Shown: piece by piece, positions 14,696 through 48,329 of the stretch
Layout: each line of letters starts with the position of its first letter
How positions within the stretch are numbered: the stretch's first letter is position 1
Sequence record: PZ445517.1
Reading direction: 5' to 3' (one strand)
Length of the DNA: 64,000 bases
Source of the DNA: a phage
Program-made: the position numbers and the translations under genes
The notes under the pieces: model-generated
Seen by the model: only the letters and a program-made list of their open reading frames with translations
Told to the model about the DNA's origin: nothing
The model's database searches: none

Positions 14696-16207
14696 ATGAC
14701 TGACATTAAAGTACATTTTTATGATTTTAGTCACGTGAGAATTGATTGTGAAGAAAGTACATTTCATGAACTCCGTGATTTCTTTAGCTTTGAAGCTGAT
14801 GGGTATCGTTTTAATCCGAAATACAAATATGGTCACTGGGATGGACGAATCCGTCTTTTAGATTATAATCGCCTTCTTCCATTCGGCTTAGTCGGGCAAA
14901 TTAAAAAGTTCTGCGATAACTTTGGCTATAAAGCCTGGATTGACCCGCAAATTAACGAAAAAGAAGAATTATCAAGAAAAGATTTTGATGAATGGCTTTC
15001 TAAATTAGAAATCTATTCAGGAAATAAAAGAATTGAACCGCATTGGTATCAAAAAGATGCAGTGTTCGAAGGATTAGTTAATCGTCGCAGAATTCTTAAT
15101 CTTCCAACATCCGCAGGTAAATCTTTAATTCAAGCTTTGCTTGCACGTTATTATTTGGAAAATTATGAAGGTAAAATTCTTATCATTGTTCCAACAACTG
15201 CTCTGACAACTCAGATGGCTGATGACTTCGTTGACTATCGTTTATTCAGTCATGCAATGATAAAGAAAATCGGCGGCGGAGCATCAAAAGATGATAAATA
15301 TAAAAATGATGCACCGGTAATTGTTGGTACATGGCAAACTGTAGTAAAACAACCAAAAGAATGGTTTTCCCAATTTGGTATGATGATGAATGATGAATGC
15401 CATCTTGCTACAGGAAAAAGTATTTCATCTATCATATCAGGATTAAATAACTGTATGTTTAAATTTGGTCTATCAGGTTCATTACGTGATGGCAAAGCTA
15501 ATATCATGCAGTATGTTGGAATGTTTGGTGAAATATTTAAGCCAGTAACGACTTCTAAATTAATGGAAGATGGACAAGTAACTGAGCTAAAAATTAATAG
15601 TATTTTTCTTCGCTATCCAGATGAGTTCACTACTAAATTAAAGGGAAAAACTTATCAAGAAGAAATAAAAATTATTACTGGGCTTAGTAAAAGAAATAAA
15701 TGGATCGCTAAATTAGCTATTAAGCTTGCGCAAAAAGATGAAAACGCTTTTGTCATGTTTAAACATGTATCACATGGTAAAGCTATTTTCGATTTAATTA
15801 AAAATGAATACGATAAAGTTTATTACGTATCAGGGGAAGTTGATACCGAAACCCGCAATATAATGAAAACCTTAGCTGAAAATGGTAAAGGAATAATTAT
15901 AGTAGCTAGTTATGGTGTATTTTCTACTGGTATTTCAGTTAAAAATCTGCATCACGTTGTTTTAGCGCACGGTGTTAAATCAAAAATCATTGTATTACAA
16001 ACAATCGGTCGTGTATTACGTAAGCATGGTTCTAAGACAATAGCAACAGTCTGGGACCTCATAGATGATTGTGGTGTTAAGCCAAAATCTGCTAATACTA
16101 AAAAGAAATATGTTCATTTGAACTATCTTTTAAAACACGGCATTGATCGTATTCAGCGCTACGCAGATGAAAAATTTAATTACGTAATGAAAACAGTTAA
16201 TTTATAA
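14696..16207 (+). CDS. uvsW: UvsW SF2 helicase (recombination/repair)
   Basis: 503-aa ORF with Walker A (PTSAGKS) and DECH box (MMNDECHLA); late promoter upstream. Confidence 0.92.
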   Translation: MTDIKVHFYDFSHVRIDCEESTFHELRDFFSFEADGYRFNPKYKYGHWDGRIRLLDYNRLLPFGLVGQIKKFCDNFGYKAWIDPQINEKEELSRKDFDEWLSKLEIYSGNKRIEPHWYQKDAVFEGLVNRRRILNLPTSAGKSLIQALLARYYLENYEGKILIIVPTTALTTQMADDFVDYRLFSHAMIKKIGGGASKDDKYKNDAPVIVGTWQTVVKQPKEWFSQFGMMMNDECHLATGKSISSIISGLNNCMFKFGLSGSLRDGKANIMQYVGMFGEIFKPVTTSKLMEDGQVTELKINSIFLRYPDEFTTKLKGKTYQEEIKIITGLSKRNKWIAKLAIKLAQKDENAFVMFKHVSHGKAIFDLIKNEYDKVYYVSGEVDTETRNIMKTLAENGKGIIIVASYGVFSTGISVKNLHHVVLAHGVKSKIIVLQTIGRVLRKHGSKTIATVWDLIDDCGVKPKSANTKKKYVHLNYLLKHGIDRIQRYADEKFNYVMKTVNL

Positions 16208-16232: not shown

Positions 16233-16463
16233 ATGTTACTAGAATTTAAACAATTTCTTTATGAAGCTTCTATTGATGAATTTATGGGTAAAATTGCCTC
16301 TTGTCAAACATTAGAAGGTTTAGAAGAACTTGAAGCTTATTATAAGAAAAGAGTTAAAGAAACTGAATTAAAAGATACTGATGACATCTCAGTCAGAGAT
16401 GCTTTGGCAGGAAAAAGAGCTGAATTAGAAGATTCAGACGATGAAGTAGAAGAAAGCTTTTAA
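16233..16463 (+). CDS. uvsW.1: UvsW.1 small acidic protein
   Basis: ORF track starts at a TTG (16221); the ATG at 16233 after a GGAGA site gives 76 aa, the length of T4 UvsW.1. Confidence 0.8.
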   Translation: MLLEFKQFLYEASIDEFMGKIASCQTLEGLEELEAYYKKRVKETELKDTDDISVRDALAGKRAELEDSDDEVEESF

Positions 16464-16714: not shown

Positions 16715-16939
16715 TTATATAACTCTCATATGCATATCAATACCCATATCTTTAGAATAAAAATATTCATCAAGATATCCGGCAAATTTTCCTTTAATAT
16801 AAAGTACATCTTCACCGCATGGGTGGTCGGCCAGGATACGAATATCCTGACGCTTGAGATTATACTTTTTCATTAAGAATTGAATTTCCGTTTCGAATTC
16901 TTCTTCATAATTAAAAGCATCATCAATGCTATATTTCAT
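16715..16939 (-). CDS. hypothetical small protein downstream of uvsY
   Basis: 74-aa ORF directly after uvsY, start/stop coupled to it. Confidence 0.65.
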   Translation of the reverse strand: MKYSIDDAFNYEEEFETEIQFLMKKYNLKRQDIRILADHPCGEDVLYIKGKFAGYLDEYFYSKDMGIDMHMRVI

Positions 16940-17352
16940 TATTTTCCAGCCTCAAATGCTCGCATGTCTTGAATGTGCTTAATAGCAAATCCACGTGATT
17001 TAATAGCATCAAGAGCTCCGCTACAGAAATCCAATAAAATCCCCCAATACTGTAACGAGGTATCAACCTTTAAAACATCCTTATCAGCTGATAGAACTGT
17101 TTTCATTTCTGATTTCTCGTAACGATCCATACTAAATTCATCACCATCTCCTCGTCCCGAGTAGTAGTCTAATCTAGCTTTAAGAGCAACTTTTTTCTGT
17201 GCATCAATTCTAAGCATTTCCTTTTTAATACTTGAATGCTTATTAAGCCATTTACTATATAACATCACATTATTAGCTGCTTCATACTGCAATTTAGTCG
17301 AATCTATAAACACATCTTTCTTCAATTCTTCTTGAAGATCTTCTAATCTCAT
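16939..17352 (-). CDS. uvsY: UvsY recombination mediator
   Basis: 137-aa ORF, same length as T4 UvsY; synteny between uvsW and gene 25. Confidence 0.9.
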   Translation of the reverse strand: MRLEDLQEELKKDVFIDSTKLQYEAANNVMLYSKWLNKHSSIKKEMLRIDAQKKVALKARLDYYSGRGDGDEFSMDRYEKSEMKTVLSADKDVLKVDTSLQYWGILLDFCSGALDAIKSRGFAIKHIQDMRAFEAGK

Positions 17353-17418
17353 ATTGTTCTCTATTCAATTGTTATTGGATGGACTTAGATTCATTATACC
17401 ACGTTTATACGTGAAGCA

Positions 17419-17817
17419 TTATACTCTATTACTGGAAGCCAGTTGCAGTTTTATCTGCTCAATATCATCAGGATTATCGATGACCGAAAAGCGTATTTCT
17501 ACTATCAGAGTATAATCATCATAAACCGGTATTACATTAACTGCTAATTTATCAATACGTGGCTCATAGTTTCTTACTGCGCTTTCGATGTTACGCTCAA
17601 CCGTATCAGCAGTAAGAGGAGTCATATTTTCAAAAAGCTGATCTGATAAATCACATCCAAATTCAGGGTCAAACGGTCTTGAACCTTTTCTTGTTGTAAT
17701 AATTCCCAAAAGACTGTTTTTAATTGACCTTAATCCAAGTGATCTGGAAACGTCTTTGTTCCAATCCATTTTCATTTCCGGGTCAATGTCAGAATAAAGC
17801 TTATTAATATTTGACAT
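17419..17817 (-). CDS. 25: baseplate wedge protein gp25 (lysozyme-like fold)
   Basis: 132-aa ORF; length and synteny with gene 26. Confidence 0.9.
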   Translation of the reverse strand: MSNINKLYSDIDPEMKMDWNKDVSRSLGLRSIKNSLLGIITTRKGSRPFDPEFGCDLSDQLFENMTPLTADTVERNIESAVRNYEPRIDKLAVNVIPVYDDYTLIVEIRFSVIDNPDDIEQIKLQLASSNRV

Positions 17818-42602: not shown

Positions 42603-43781
42603 TTAAAAATATTTTTTAAAACTCATCATAACTTTATCATCAACATCATTATCAATCTGTGCTACAAGGTAAGATGACAGTTCTACTTCTTGCGGCGCGG
42701 ATTGAACATTATCAGAATTAAGGTATTCACGAATCCAAGGATATGGATGTTTAACCGGAGCATCGGTAATTGGGCATGGAAGACCGCACTGTTTCATACG
42801 AGATACAGTTAAGTAATCAATAAAGCTCCACATGCTATTTGTATTTAATCCAGGAACATCACCATCTTTAAATAAATGAACTGCCCAATCTTTTTCTTGG
42901 CGGTTAACTTCCATGAAAATATCAACTGCTTCTTGTTCACACTCTTGGGCAATTTTAACCCATTCATCACCATCAATGCCAAGTTGAAGTTGACGAATAA
43001 TATATTGTGTACCTTTAAGATGAAGTTGCTCATCACGCGCAATGAACTTCATAATCTTGGCATTACCTTCCATAATTTCCATGTTCTTATGGAAGTTAAA
43101 GGTACAGGCGAAAGATACGTAAAAACGAATAGCTTCCAATGCATTGATTACATGAAGGCAAAGATAAAGAGATTTCATTAGTGCTCGTTTAGCTTCGGCT
43201 TCTTGTTTAATAGCTCGATTTAAACGAAAATCAGCATCAGGAGATTCTTTAGCTAGTTCTACAAATTCTTTAGCATTTTCCCATTCACGGGTCTTCTTAA
43301 GAACATCATCGTAATAGCGACCAATGGACTCAGCGCGTTTCATAATATCTTCATCTAATACAATCTCATCAAATACCTTTGACGGATCAGTATAAAGATT
43401 TCGCATGATATGGGTATATGAACGGCTGTGAATAGTTTCACTAAAAGTCCATGTAGCAACCCATGTATCAAGACTTGGGTCTGAAATTAACGACATAAGT
43501 ACAGCAGACGGTGCACGACCCTGAATGCTATCTAGAAGTGATTGATACTTCAGGTTATTAGTAAAAATATCTTGCTGATACTGAGGAAGCTTGTTAAATT
43601 GTGCAGCATCCATCATTAAGTTTACTTCTTCAGGACGCCAGAAAAATGATAATTGCTTTTCGGTTAAATCTTCAAAAACTTTATGGCGTTGAATATCATA
43701 ACGCGCAATACCAAGACCTGAACCGAAGAACATAGGTTCTTTTAAAACATCAACTGGATTTGTATTAAAAACTGTAGACAT
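42603..43781 (-). CDS. nrdB: aerobic ribonucleotide reductase small subunit (R2), uninterrupted
   Basis: 392-aa continuous ORF with di-iron/tyrosyl radical R2 features; no intron interruption. Confidence 0.92.
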   Translation of the reverse strand: MSTVFNTNPVDVLKEPMFFGSGLGIARYDIQRHKVFEDLTEKQLSFFWRPEEVNLMMDAAQFNKLPQYQQDIFTNNLKYQSLLDSIQGRAPSAVLMSLISDPSLDTWVATWTFSETIHSRSYTHIMRNLYTDPSKVFDEIVLDEDIMKRAESIGRYYDDVLKKTREWENAKEFVELAKESPDADFRLNRAIKQEAEAKRALMKSLYLCLHVINALEAIRFYVSFACTFNFHKNMEIMEGNAKIMKFIARDEQLHLKGTQYIIRQLQLGIDGDEWVKIAQECEQEAVDIFMEVNRQEKDWAVHLFKDGDVPGLNTNSMWSFIDYLTVSRMKQCGLPCPITDAPVKHPYPWIREYLNSDNVQSAPQEVELSSYLVAQIDNDVDDKVMMSFKKYF

Positions 43782-43816
43782 ATTATTCTCGCTTATTATA
43801 GGTTTAAATTATTTAA

Positions 43817-44608
43817 TCACATATTGTGTATAAGCACTTCAGTCTGAAATGATGCACCTTTCTTTTGCTTCCTATACATGGTTTCAAAATATTCAATTTT
43901 GAAATTATTAGAAAGGGCCCAATCTTTTAAAATATAATTATTAATATCGTCTGATAGATTATTAGTGATAATAAATTTAGACTTCGATTGTTTAATTTTG
44001 TCTAATAATTCTAATTCATCCTTTTCTTCCCAGCCTGAATATTTAAATTTAGTAGAAAGATACGGCGGGTCAATGAATAAATTTTTGTTTTCAAAATCCA
44101 AATCTCTGAATGATTTATTACTAAATGTAAATCTGTGCTGTCTATTTTTAAATTCAGAAAATTTATCCTGTTGAGACTTATTAAAAGAAGTTCTGGAATA
44201 CTTGGCTCTATTGGCGAAAGCCGCGTTATAATTCCCATTACTAGAAAATCGGATTAACGAACTGAATGAAAATAAATGTAGAACATAAAGATATAGTCCG
44301 TTTTTGGTTTTATCGTATTCTTTTGACAGATTATAAAAAGGTGCTGAATCTTTGTCATTCAAATTAAAGTCTTCAATAATTTGAACTATATCATTAATTG
44401 AAGATGATTTCATCTTGTTATACATATCTATAAGAGGAGTATTAATATCATTACATATAACATCTCTCTGACAATTCATAGAAAATCCAAGACCACCACA
44501 AAAAGCGTCCAAAACAGGCTTATCGTCAAAGCGGTTTGAAAATTGTCTAATAAATGGCATATACTTATGTTTTGCACCTGGATATGTTATGGCAGGTAGG
44601 TCTTTCAT
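43817..44608 (-). CDS. Dam-family N6-adenine DNA methyltransferase-like protein
   Basis: 263-aa ORF; AdoMet motif (DAFCGGLGFSMN), DPPY catalytic motif (FIDPPYLST), N-terminal YPGAK and DINTPLIDMYN segments parallel to E. coli Dam; own ribosome-binding site and hairpin upstream. Confidence 0.8.
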   Translation of the reverse strand: MKDLPAITYPGAKHKYMPFIRQFSNRFDDKPVLDAFCGGLGFSMNCQRDVICNDINTPLIDMYNKMKSSSINDIVQIIEDFNLNDKDSAPFYNLSKEYDKTKNGLYLYVLHLFSFSSLIRFSSNGNYNAAFANRAKYSRTSFNKSQQDKFSEFKNRQHRFTFSNKSFRDLDFENKNLFIDPPYLSTKFKYSGWEEKDELELLDKIKQSKSKFIITNNLSDDINNYILKDWALSNNFKIEYFETMYRKQKKGASFQTEVLIHNM

Positions 44609-44626
44609 TTTATTTCTCGTTGTTAG

Positions 44627-44644
44627 TGACTCGTCCGTGAGTCA
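44627..44644 (-). terminator. hairpin between nrdA and the methyltransferase gene (TGACTC-gtccgt-GAGTCA)
   Basis: 6-bp stem 7 nt after the nrdA stop. Confidence 0.4.
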
Positions 44645-44651
44645 AATTATA

Positions 44652-46916
44652 TCATAATTTACAGGATGAACAATCTTCAGCTTTTGGAGTTTCTATTTCA
44701 TAATCATCAGTACCAGAACCATCGCGGGTATTATGATAATAGAAATTTTTTCCGCCAAAATACCAAAAATACAAAAGGTCATCAATCATTACAGACATTG
44801 GAACCTTTCCTTTTGGAAAAATCTGCGGGTCATAATATGTATTCGCTGAAGCTGATTGACATACCCATTTAAGCATAATAGCTACCTGCGTAAGATAAGG
44901 TTTATTACCTTTCTTAGCTAATTTCCATGTATAATCATAGAGGTCTATGTTATGTTCAATATTGGGCACGACTTGATTAAAGGAACCCTCTTTTGATTCT
45001 TTAACCGAGACTGGTCCACGTGGAGGCTCGATACCGTTTGTACTGTTAGAAACTTGGGAAGATGACTCACATGGCATAAGTGCTGATAATGTGCTATTAC
45101 GGATGCCAAAGAGCTTAAGGTCTTCCCGCAGCGCCGACCAGTCACAAACGTATTTTGGAGCTGCGATTTGGTCAATCTTTTTATTGTACCAGTCGATAGG
45201 TAATTCGCCTCGAGACCAACGAGTGTCTGAATAATATTCGCAAGGTCCTTTTTCTTTGGCGAGCTTAATGGATGCTTTAATGAGTCCATACTGTAATCTC
45301 TCAAATAGTTCATGTGTTAAATCGTTAGCATCTTCATAAGAAGCAAAGTTACTTGCCAGCCAAGCTGCATAGTTAGTAACACCTACGCCAAGGTTTCGAC
45401 GCTTTTTAGCTTTTTCTGCTTCAGGAACTGGATATCCTTGGTAATCCAAAAGATTATCAAGAGCGCGAACTTGAACTTCTGCTAATTCATTAATTTTATC
45501 TTGGTCTTGCCAATCGAAGTTATCCAACACAAATGCAGATAACGTGCACAATCCAATTTCAGCATCAGGACTATTCACATCATTTGTTGGAATAGCAATT
45601 TCACAACACAAGTTACTCTGACGAATAGGTGCCTTTTCACGAATAAACGGAGTATAGTTATTCGTATTATCAATGAACTGTACATAAATCCTTGCTGTTC
45701 CTGATCGTTCAGTCATGAGCAATTCAAACAGTTCACGGGCTTTAATACGCTTTTTACGAATATTAGGGTCTTTTTCTGCAGCTTCGTACAATTCACGGAA
45801 TCGGTCTTGGTCTTTAAAATAAGAATAATAAAGTTCGCCACCCATTTCATGCGGACTAAACAAAGTAATGTAGTCGTTCTTTCCAAAACGTTCCATCATT
45901 AGGTCATTCAGCTGAACACCATAATCCATATGACGGATACGGTTTTCTTCTACACCTTTGTTATTTTTCAAAACGAGAAGATTTTCAACTTCCAAATGCC
46001 AAATAGGATAATAAGCAGTAGCAGCGCCGCCACGAATTCCGCCCTGTGAACATGATTTAACAGCAGTCTGAAAATGTTTCCAAAAAGGAATAACACCAGT
46101 ATGACGCACTTCACCTGTGCCAATCTTAGAACCTTCAGCACGAATCATACCAACGTTAATGCCGATTCCAGCTCGTTTAGAAATATACTCAACAATTGAA
46201 GCAGAAGCCTTATTGATAGACTTCAGCGAATCGCCTGCCTCAATAACAACGCATGAACTAAACTGCCGAGTTGGAGTACGACAACCAGCCATAATAGGAG
46301 TTGGCAATGAAATCTGTCGAGTAGATACTGCTTCATAAAAACGAATAACATGTTTTAATCTGTCAACAGGTTCATCTTGATGCAATGCCATTCCAATAGT
46401 CATAAATGCAAACTGTGGAGTTTCATAAATTTGACCAGTGGTTTTATCTTTAACTAGATATTTTTCTTTTAATTGCATCGCTCCGGAATAAGTAAATTCC
46501 ATATCCCGCTCATGCTTAATTTTTGATTCTAAAAATGTAATTTCTTCTGCTGAATATTTTGACAACAGTTCAGGGTCGTATTTACCTTCATTTACACAGT
46601 AAGAAATATGGTCAATAAATGAACGGGGCTCATACTGCCCGTAAACATGCTTACGAAGAGCAAACATTAAACAGCGTGCAGCTACATATTGATAATCAGG
46701 CTCTTCAACTGAAATAGAATTCGCAGCAGCCTTAATGACAATAGTCTGAATGTCATCAGTTGTCATTCCATCACGGAGATATGATTTAATATTTTCATAT
46801 AATTCATAAGGATCTACAGATGTTCCTTCAGCTGCCCAAGATAAAACTTTAATAATTTTTTGCGGGTCAAAGCTTTGAGAAACACCACTACTTTTGATAA
46901 CATTAATTAATTGCAT
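44652..46916 (-). CDS. nrdA: aerobic ribonucleotide reductase large subunit (R1)
   Basis: 754-aa ORF; catalytic NLCCEIA segment, C-terminal Cys pair (CSSCKL); same length as T4 NrdA. Confidence 0.95.
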   Translation of the reverse strand: MQLINVIKSSGVSQSFDPQKIIKVLSWAAEGTSVDPYELYENIKSYLRDGMTTDDIQTIVIKAAANSISVEEPDYQYVAARCLMFALRKHVYGQYEPRSFIDHISYCVNEGKYDPELLSKYSAEEITFLESKIKHERDMEFTYSGAMQLKEKYLVKDKTTGQIYETPQFAFMTIGMALHQDEPVDRLKHVIRFYEAVSTRQISLPTPIMAGCRTPTRQFSSCVVIEAGDSLKSINKASASIVEYISKRAGIGINVGMIRAEGSKIGTGEVRHTGVIPFWKHFQTAVKSCSQGGIRGGAATAYYPIWHLEVENLLVLKNNKGVEENRIRHMDYGVQLNDLMMERFGKNDYITLFSPHEMGGELYYSYFKDQDRFRELYEAAEKDPNIRKKRIKARELFELLMTERSGTARIYVQFIDNTNNYTPFIREKAPIRQSNLCCEIAIPTNDVNSPDAEIGLCTLSAFVLDNFDWQDQDKINELAEVQVRALDNLLDYQGYPVPEAEKAKKRRNLGVGVTNYAAWLASNFASYEDANDLTHELFERLQYGLIKASIKLAKEKGPCEYYSDTRWSRGELPIDWYNKKIDQIAAPKYVCDWSALREDLKLFGIRNSTLSALMPCESSSQVSNSTNGIEPPRGPVSVKESKEGSFNQVVPNIEHNIDLYDYTWKLAKKGNKPYLTQVAIMLKWVCQSASANTYYDPQIFPKGKVPMSVMIDDLLYFWYFGGKNFYYHNTRDGSGTDDYEIETPKAEDCSSCKL

Positions 46917-47468: not shown

Positions 47469-48329
47469 TTACACCGCCATTTTTCCTTTCAAGACACCAT
47501 GGGACTGATAATCTTTAAGAACGAAATCTCGCGATGTCATATATTCAGTTAACCAATACATTTGAGTTTCAGTATCGCATTGGCTGAATCCATTAGGCCA
47601 ATTAATACTGAGTTTGCACAGGTCCATAGGAGTTCTATTTAATATCTCTTTGCATTGCTCAATATGGTTAGAATAAATGTGTGTATTGCCACCCGAAAAT
47701 ACCAAATCGCCTGGAACTAGTTCACACATGTCAGCAACAATATGTAAGAGAGCAGCATAGCTCGCGATGTTAAATGGAAGACCGAGGAAAACATCTACCG
47801 AGCGTTGATACCATTGGAGGTCAAGGTATCCGTTACGAACATTAAACTGATAGAACATGTGACAAGGCGGTAATGCCATTTGCTTGAGTTCAGCTGGATT
47901 CCACGCCGACACAATTTGTCGCCTATCGTTTGGAAATGTTTTAATACGATTAACAACTTCTACAATTTGGTCTACACCGCCAAAATCACGCCATTGTTTT
48001 CCGTAAATTGGACCAAGTTCACCACTATGATAACCTAGGTCTTTGGCCTGATTTTCGTAGTTTTCATCCCAAATCGTTTTTCCAGCAATTAAGGATCCAT
48101 GAGTACGTTTACGTAGATCATTTACGTTAGTACTTCCTGATAAGAACCACAATAACTCAGAAATACACGCATTCCAGGCGAGCTTCTTAGTTGTTACTGC
48201 AGGAAAACCTTTACTTAAATCCCAGCGTAATTTAGTACCGAACAAAGCAATTGTTCCTGTGCCCGTTCGGTCATCGGTTTCATAGCCATTTTCAAAAATG
48301 TCTTTAATTAAATCTTGGTATTGTTTCAT
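47469..48329 (-). CDS. td: thymidylate synthase, uninterrupted (no group I intron)
   Basis: 286-aa continuous ORF, N-terminus MKQYQDLIKDIFENGYETDDRTGTGT, active-site region ALPPCHMFYQF. Confidence 0.95.
   Translation of the reverse strand: MKQYQDLIKDIFENGYETDDRTGTGTIALFGTKLRWDLSKGFPAVTTKKLAWNACISELLWFLSGSTNVNDLRKRTHGSLIAGKTIWDENYENQAKDLGYHSGELGPIYGKQWRDFGGVDQIVEVVNRIKTFPNDRRQIVSAWNPAELKQMALPPCHMFYQFNVRNGYLDLQWYQRSVDVFLGLPFNIASYAALLHIVADMCELVPGDLVFSGGNTHIYSNHIEQCKEILNRTPMDLCKLSINWPNGFSQCDTETQMYWLTEYMTSRDFVLKDYQSHGVLKGKMAV

Follow-up and report, generated by a model that had tools for sequence, protein, structure and literature searches.

A predicted methyltransferase gene between nrdA and nrdB

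The stretch of phage DNA analyzed here (sequence record PZ445517.1, 64,000 nucleotides; the whole of it is termed the window below) contains a 263-aa open reading frame (ORF) lodged between the nrdA and nrdB genes, which an earlier reading of the letters alone (the sequence-only reading) had proposed to encode a Dam-class N6-adenine methyltransferase. The position and length given for the ORF are confirmed, as it lies at 43817..44608 on the minus strand and fills the spacer between the start of nrdB (43781) and the stop of nrdA (44652). Both motifs on which the proposal was based are also present, namely DAFCGGLGFSMN at residues 34-45 and FIDPPY at residues 178-183. Whole-genome results refer to Escherichia phage T4_ev240 (LR597657.1, 166,954 bp), in which the window occupies record positions 94291-158290 and to which it is 100% identical over window 43400-45000. 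In that GenBank record the ORF is labelled 'hypothetical protein'; near-identical genes elsewhere in GenBank are labelled 'DNA adenine methylase' or 'putative methylase'.

Pfam, PHROG, a curated-model scan, the match in the Protein Data Bank (PDB) and Foldseek all uphold the D12 class. The search with the Pfam profile PF02086 (MethyltransfD12), which had been suggested as a check of the proposal, returned 84.6 bits against a cutoff of 22 (E = 1.2e-23) and spanned nearly the whole profile (positions 1-251 of 253), while PHROG 56 (DNA methyltransferase) matched with E = 1.1e-35 and the best PADLOC model for the ORF was the orphan methyltransferase model PDLC03722 (131 bits). Among PDB sequences T4 Dam was by far the best match (E = 6e-37, ORF residues 4-252 against 2-251), with E. 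coli Dam (EcoDam) and DpnM recovered at E of about 1e-5. An AlphaFold2 (AF2) model based on 21 homologues has a predicted local distance difference test score (pLDDT) of 87.7 and a predicted template modelling score (pTM) of 0.87, the only segment below a pLDDT of 50 being residues 135-137, and when used as a Foldseek query it retrieved T4Dam first (template modelling score, TM, 0.83; E = 3.5e-21), followed by EcoDam (0.74) and DpnM (0.72). The order of motifs is that of the alpha-group, with motif I, the S-adenosylmethionine (AdoMet) motif FxGxG, near the N-terminus as F36-C-G-G-L-G, a recognition beta-hairpin in the middle of the protein at approximately residues 115-134, and the catalytic motif IV towards the C-terminus as D180-P-P-Y. 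Neither the catalytic nor the AdoMet motif varies within the family, and the aspartate is retained in 149 of 149 homologues and the PPY in about 148. Based on these matches we predict that the ORF encodes a full-length D12-class N6-adenine DNA methyltransferase. Because the frame is intact in all eight phage copies as well as in the metagenomic copies, and because the ratio of nonsynonymous to synonymous divergence (dN/dS) among the eight is 0.03-0.18 at dS values up to 1.3, the gene appears to encode a protein under purifying selection. Its direct neighbors are nrdA and nrdB, with no adjacent cognate restriction endonuclease. The joint explanation that we favor, and consider quite probable from these comparisons, is that the ORF specifies a functional orphan AdoMet-dependent D12 methyltransferase, which is carried as a promoter-less exchangeable cassette and likely targets GATC.

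The features of the locus are as follows:

43817..44608, minus strand: methyltransferase ORF from the ORF listing, 263 aa with an ATG start; predicted orphan D12-class (alpha-group) N6-adenine DNA methyltransferase
43802..44623, minus strand: insert proper, about 822 bp with a single gene, between the post-nrdA hairpin and the nrdB translation-initiation region
44609..44623, minus strand: translation-initiation region of the methyltransferase gene, mRNA CUAACAACGAGAAAUAAA-AUG with the GAG at 44616-44618, as read from the sequence
44627..44644, minus strand: hairpin UGACUC-ACGGAC-GAGUCA just downstream of the nrdA stop, preceded by TATAAT at 44646-44651
43782..43801, minus strand: nrdB translation-initiation region in a carrier-linked variant, GCGAGAAUAAU-AUG-UCU
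42603..43781, minus strand: nrdB, the downstream flank, 392 aa, intron-less
44652..46916, minus strand: nrdA, the upstream flank, 754 aa, probable source of read-through transcription

The limits of the insert were defined by comparison with the empty-site phage teqskov, whose homology to the window ends at 43801 toward nrdB and starts again at 44624 toward nrdA; the ORF accounts for 792 of the approximately 822 inserted bases. The GC content of the insert is 29.2%, as against 36-38% in nrdB, nrdA and the window. The ribosome-binding site claimed for the ORF was recovered as a GAG Shine-Dalgarno-like element 7 nt before the ATG, and this initiation region is kept in phage EP02SG and is similar in phages BGP and CF-SP2. 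The flanking hairpins claimed in the same reading survive only on one side. The upstream 6-bp stem is real, being present in the teqskov empty site and in all carriers, across genera and always behind TATAAT, and displaying in its Klebsiella-type copies a compensatory change from A-U to G-C (GACUC/GAGUC to GGCUC/GAGCC), although its predicted fold (-7.5 kcal/mol, z of -0.66) is not above that of shuffled sequences. It appears, from its presence in the empty site, to be native to the spacer and to lie outside the insert. The fold downstream of the ORF (z of +0.70) is no better than shuffled sequence. The TATAAT and the hairpin may together represent an nrdB promoter and a 5' stem-loop of the nrdB transcript. 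The second codon of nrdB is TCT in all carriers, AGC in the teqskov empty site and AGT in T4. Scans of the cassette recovered no terminator-like site and no match to Rfam families, and promoter consensus scans gave matches near background. At the ends of the insert we found neither flanking direct or inverted repeats nor a target-site duplication suggestive of transposition.

As regards the flanking genes and the deposited annotation, nrdB and td (47469-48329, 286 aa) are each a single uninterrupted ORF in the window, while in T4 both are annotated as split by group I introns into two joined pieces, the nrdB intron containing the annotated I-TevIII. The annotation of T4_ev240 (LR597657.1, 1-50000) contains errors of name propagation, such as modA.2-modA.4 termed 'Molybdenum ABC transporter ModA' and a series of nrdC.x genes named 'Thioredoxin'.

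Relationship to T4 Dam and the canonical dam locus

The closest solved structures and the closest sequence clade are those of T2/T4 Dam (M.EcoT4Dam; PDB 1Q0S/1YFJ/1YFL), with which the ORF product shares the alpha-group motif order, the DPPY active site, the hairpin residues F, S, M/L, R and R, and the status of an orphan enzyme of a T-even phage with hydroxymethylcytosine (hmC) DNA. Unlike T4 Dam, to which it is 34% identical, it has a six-residue insertion after the hairpin and an alanine in place of Pro126, and it falls short of the curated model of the family. The NCBIfam profile TIGR00571 ('Dam family site-specific DNA-(adenine-N6)-methyltransferase') has a curated cutoff of 114.85 bits, below which lie the ORF product (93.6) and its homologue from CF-SP2 (67.8) and above which lie the positive controls T4 Dam (239.5), P0021 (153.9) and EcoDam (352.9). 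In a HMMER scan of 1.84 billion cluster representatives E-values of 1e-30 or lower were reached only by the family's own cluster, the next match being P0021 (E = 2.1e-28), which is 34% identical to the ORF product and 52% identical to T4 Dam. Similarly, in a set of 5.8 billion proteins four clusters stand alone at 75% identity or more and the following cluster is at 33%. In light of the 34% identity, the shortfall against TIGR00571 and the isolation in both of these large scans, the family appears to be an isolated sister lineage of the T2/T4 Dam clade. Resemblance to E. coli Dam and DpnM (PDB 2G1P, 2DPM) extends to the D12 fold (TM 0.72-0.76), the conserved intercalating aromatic residue and the equivalents of Leu122 and Arg124, but sequence identity is only about 16-20%. 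Dam-like genes situated elsewhere in Straboviridae, in Klebsiella, Cronobacter, Aeromonas and GEC-3S-type phages, likewise encode accessory D12-class orphan methyltransferases, but these are 28-38% identical to the ORF product and occupy unrelated loci.

In T4 the gene order is 56-dam-61, with dam at 16846-17625, and the statement in the sequence-only reading that the canonical dam lies away from nrdA-nrdB is thus correct. The genome-wide search for a canonical dam, which had been advised in that reading, found this slot empty in T4_ev240 and no further match to T4 Dam. Gene 56 ends at 16049 and gene 61 starts at 16317 (LR597657.1, outside the window), and in the alignment of the slot (L003:16050-16316) about 900 bp of T4, comprising dam and short flanks, stand against about 20 bp in T4_ev240, a clean empty indel with no dam remnant in the alignment with T4. 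A tblastn search with T4 Dam against all 166,954 bp of T4_ev240 matched the ORF alone (E = 1.6e-37), the next hit having E = 0.059. Because the whole-genome search recovers one locus and the 56-61 slot is empty, the ORF appears to encode the sole D12 enzyme of T4_ev240.

Two alternatives had been offered in the sequence-only reading, a second methyltransferase or a relocated one, and neither stands. The former is ruled out because tblastn searches of the T4_ev240 genome with T4 Dam and with the ORF product converge on one locus, making the ORF the only D12 homologue beside an empty canonical slot. The latter, under which the ORF would be the usual dam orthologue at a changed location, could draw on precisely this combination of a sole D12 gene and a vacant canonical slot, but is already contradicted on several counts and strikes us as very improbable. 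Canonical dam is 93-100% identical in DNA to T4 dam across 184 records, as against the 34% protein identity seen here, and the curated Dam model is failed by the ORF product. At least 323 phage records have an uninterrupted 56-61 junction without dam, and nearly all of these lack the cassette. Moreover, both genes are present in phage vB_Eco_BGP (BGP), and the history of the cassette is horizontal, separate from that of dam and discordant with its own flanks.

With at least 323 dam-less records against the 184 that have canonical dam, the lack of the T4-type gene appears to be the majority state of the genus, shared by most Tequatrovirus genomes. As the dam-less state is the commonest in the genus, the absence of canonical dam from T4_ev240 is not special. 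Canonical dam is missing in seven of the eight cassette carriers, BGP being the one with both genes. We considered mutual exclusivity of the cassette and canonical dam but make no claim of it, as a rough binomial estimate gives P of about 0.26, some 60% or more of the relatives are dam-less anyway and the carriers are not independent.

Distribution and exchange of the cassette

The T4 nrdA-nrdB slot holds mobE, as had been stated in the sequence-only reading, together with nrdB.1. The further claim in that reading of an insertion hotspot is borne out by the variability of the slot, which is empty in teqskov, holds mobE and nrdB.1 in T4 and holds the methyltransferase gene here. Among the 672 phage records matching the nrdB and nrdA flanks the insert is present in eight. 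Homologues with 75-81% identity occur in the same nrdA-X-nrdB position in the Gelderlandvirus Salmonella phage CF-SP2 and in Escherichia phage fDHCT2, and in the Klebsiella Marfavirus PhiKpNIH-6 a homologue lies beside nrdA, with the copy cut by the start of the record and the nrdB side beyond it. In metagenomes the protein is encoded on four contigs, with the same slot occupied in two distinct contig contexts.

Comparison of individual carriers points to exchange of the cassette between phages. Phage EP02SG matches the window at 95% identity or more only in a block of approximately 43610-44690, with the nrdB and nrdA flanks at 60-88%; conversely, in BGP the flanks are 95-100% identical to the window and the ORF is 62-90% identical. 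Since the divergence of the cassette and that of its flanks are discordant in both directions, the cassette, and in places segments of its gene, appear to pass from one phage background to another separately from the genes on either side, and the likely route is recombination through the flanks during co-infection. A source in bacteria, prophages or plasmids was considered and rejected, as no relative was found in complete E. coli genomes, the best match in a plasmid search was 29% identical and the protein clusters drop from at least 75% to 33% identity. Our literature searches recovered no description of a methyltransferase cassette between nrdA and nrdB.

Some further peculiarities were seen among the carriers. 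The BGP gene (L008:1017-1808) is a mosaic relative to window 43817-44608, with its 3' third at 88-97% and its 5' two-thirds at 62-85%. The nrdB gene of BGP (L008:1-982) is annotated as a 678-bp piece beside a homing endonuclease gene. In phage 236Ecol005PP (L017:2753-4601), whose methyltransferase protein is 100% identical to that of T4_ev240, nrdA is split by a 'putative mobile endonuclease'.

The cassette is reminiscent of mobE of T4 and hef of other T4 relatives, which are found in the same slot as promoter-less single-gene inserts dependent on nrd transcription and show a comparable patchy distribution and exchange with short flanking tracts. In T4, mobE has no dedicated promoter and shares a transcript with nrdA (Wilson and Edgell, PMC2790892). 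In contrast to these homing-endonuclease cassettes, the ORF encodes no HNH or GIY-YIG nuclease, its Pfam and PHROG matches all being to methyltransferase families, and because no nuclease is encoded the cassette is without a means of promoting its own spread. It also differs from mobE in that an internal terminator has been reported for the latter and none was found here.

These parallels bear on the possibility that the ORF is a decaying or selfish passenger without enzymatic function, kept for a recombination-prone slot or for nrdB expression signals. Such a passenger might well be rare and AT-rich, as this insert is, might sit in a slot known for selfish homing-endonuclease genes, and might be linked to a variant nrdB initiation region of the kind common to all carriers. 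However, the intact frames, the low dN/dS at considerable dS and the invariant catalytic and AdoMet motifs described above are at odds with decay, and we give this possibility hardly any credence.

The relationship of the cassette to mobE might also be antagonistic. MobE nicks nrdB at nucleotides 122-126, and every mobE-less phage has AAG at codon 42 of nrdB, where mobE carriers have CGG/CGA or AAG/AAA (PMC2790892). In the window this codon (43656-43658) is AAG, as in teqskov, while in T4 it is CGG. As AAG is the allele of mobE-less phages, T4_ev240 should by this measure be a target of MobE, and should it co-infect a cell with T4, its cassette, some 160 bp away from the nick, would be likely to undergo conversion to mobE.

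Target specificity and predicted role

In EcoDam the guanine at the fourth base pair is recognized by R124; Y119 is the intercalating residue, N120 forms hydrogen bonds, L122 and P134 contact the third base pair, and K9 and Y138 read the first base pair, the last contact not being conserved across the Dam family (PMC4417163). We transferred these contacts by means of an alignment of 159 sequences, 151 of which are homologues other than the family members and the two references; the T4 Dam numbers are alignment-derived. The mapped positions are:

EcoDam Y119, T4 Dam F111, ORF F115
EcoDam N120, T4 Dam S112, ORF S116
EcoDam L122, T4 Dam M114, ORF L118
EcoDam R124, T4 Dam R116, ORF R120
EcoDam P134, T4 Dam P126, ORF A130
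EcoDam Y138, T4 Dam R130, ORF R134

In the window allele five of these six positions match T4 Dam or EcoDam, and unlike EcoDam, with its K9/Y138 pair at the first base pair, the ORF has the T4-type arginine (R134). T4Dam and DpnM are GATC-specific. Since most of the residues that contact GATC are conserved, GATC is the best candidate and, judging from the sequence, probably the target of the window allele, though we say so with some reserve. We assign a relaxed, extended or different site a clearly smaller likelihood.

Several observations weigh against plain GATC specificity or against other parts of the reading favored here. Apart from the shortfall against TIGR00571, the proline that contacts the third base pair (Pro126 of T4 Dam, Pro134 of EcoDam) is Ala or Ser in the family. 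R134 is followed by an invariant six-residue insertion, (A/D)KYSR(T/N), represented in the ORF by A135-K-Y-S-R-T140; insertions of six or more residues occur at this point in merely four of the 151 other homologues, and this is the only low-confidence part of the AF2 model. The insertion could alter or extend recognition, and on account of its place beside the recognition hairpin the specificity is less settled. The family further comprises two groups, of which group A (the ev240 type) has Arg at the guanine-contact position and group B (BGP, CF-SP2, fDHCT2 and P0003) has Lys at the equivalent of R124 and a different hairpin tip, the two being 68% identical in the hairpin segment and 90% in the C-terminal catalytic part. 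BGP combines the Lys variant with canonical dam, an arrangement that would be redundant if both enzymes targeted GATC. As to expression, the promoter assignment is putative, with nothing above background in the consensus scans.

Many of these observations fit an enzyme of the same class with a target other than plain GATC, a possibility already raised in the sequence-only reading; the target might for example be a relaxed site, (N)ATC or GATN, or an extended site contacted through the additional basic loop, and the enzyme would protect against another set of host nucleases than T4 Dam does. In its favor are the curated Dam model, failed by the ORF product and passed by T4 Dam, the limited identity between the two, the family-specific and poorly modelled KYSR insertion right behind a first-base-pair contact that is itself variable among Dam enzymes, the substitutions at the third-base-pair contact and, in group B, at the Arg position, and the coexistence of group B with canonical dam in BGP. 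On the other hand, the contacts are largely preserved in the window allele, and its nearest relatives and nearest structures are GATC-specific Dam enzymes. Of the 151 other homologues, 61 have Ser, Ala or Thr in place of the proline, among them the T4Dam-like P0021, and being so common the change to Ala is not diagnostic. We therefore regard this alternative as unlikely, although deserving of notice. A broader version of it, slightly more doubtful still, would see in the KYSR loop and the Arg/Lys dimorphism the marks of a distinct lineage with a relaxed, extended or non-GATC target, forming an exchangeable anti-restriction module that competes with the mobE/hef homing endonucleases for the slot and that, given the MobE-sensitive nrdB allele of its carrier, is erasable by mobE-positive phages on co-infection.

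GATC is the most depleted of the 256 tetramers in T4_ev240, with an observed-to-expected ratio (O/E) of 0.39 under a second-order Markov model and 224 sites in the genome of 166,954 bp; among palindromes TCGA (O/E 0.65) comes next. The window has 83 GATC sites against 214 expected from base composition. McClelland in 1985 reportedly noted an avoidance of GATC in enterobacterial phages, which matches the depletion seen here; the depletion says nothing direct about the methyltransferase.

Going by homology and the predicted fold, the enzyme of the orphan, GATC-directed reading favored above would bind AdoMet by its N-terminal FxGxG motif, insert the beta-hairpin into the major groove, and flip the target adenine into the DPPY pocket for methylation at N6. 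The annotation of T4_ev240 includes the gene 42 dCMP hydroxymethylase and the alpha and beta glucosyltransferases, implying glucosyl-hmC DNA, and because the genome encodes all three of these enzymes the methyltransferase would have to act on modified DNA. As with T4 Dam, the sites most likely to be methylated would be the GATC sequences of the phage's own glucosyl-hydroxymethylcytosine DNA. Since it is the only Dam-type enzyme in T4_ev240, it would supply rather than duplicate a Dam-type function. Orphan Dam enzymes of phages are usually taken to act in anti-restriction by methylating the phage's own DNA, and here too self-methylation may serve to block methylation-sensitive host nucleases. 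By analogy with mobE, expression might come from nrdA read-through, from the putative promoter or from both, with the gene as first cistron of a methyltransferase-nrdB message and translation probably starting from its own GAG site. The cassette has no mobility gene of its own, and recombination through its conserved nrdA and nrdB flanks would account for its spread among T4-like phages.

In other respects this is an ordinary accessory methyltransferase, already labelled a DNA adenine methylase in several GenBank records. Should its target prove not to be GATC, the anti-restriction repertoire of phages would gain a new specificity through this family. For phage-therapy genomics, the lack of dam at the T4 position is not to be equated with the lack of adenine methylation. 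The predicted Dam-type methylation of T4-like phages stems from at least two gene lineages at two loci, and the nrdA-nrdB spacer, a known homing-endonuclease slot, can apparently also hold non-nuclease cargo that is swapped between genera by recombination through its flanks.

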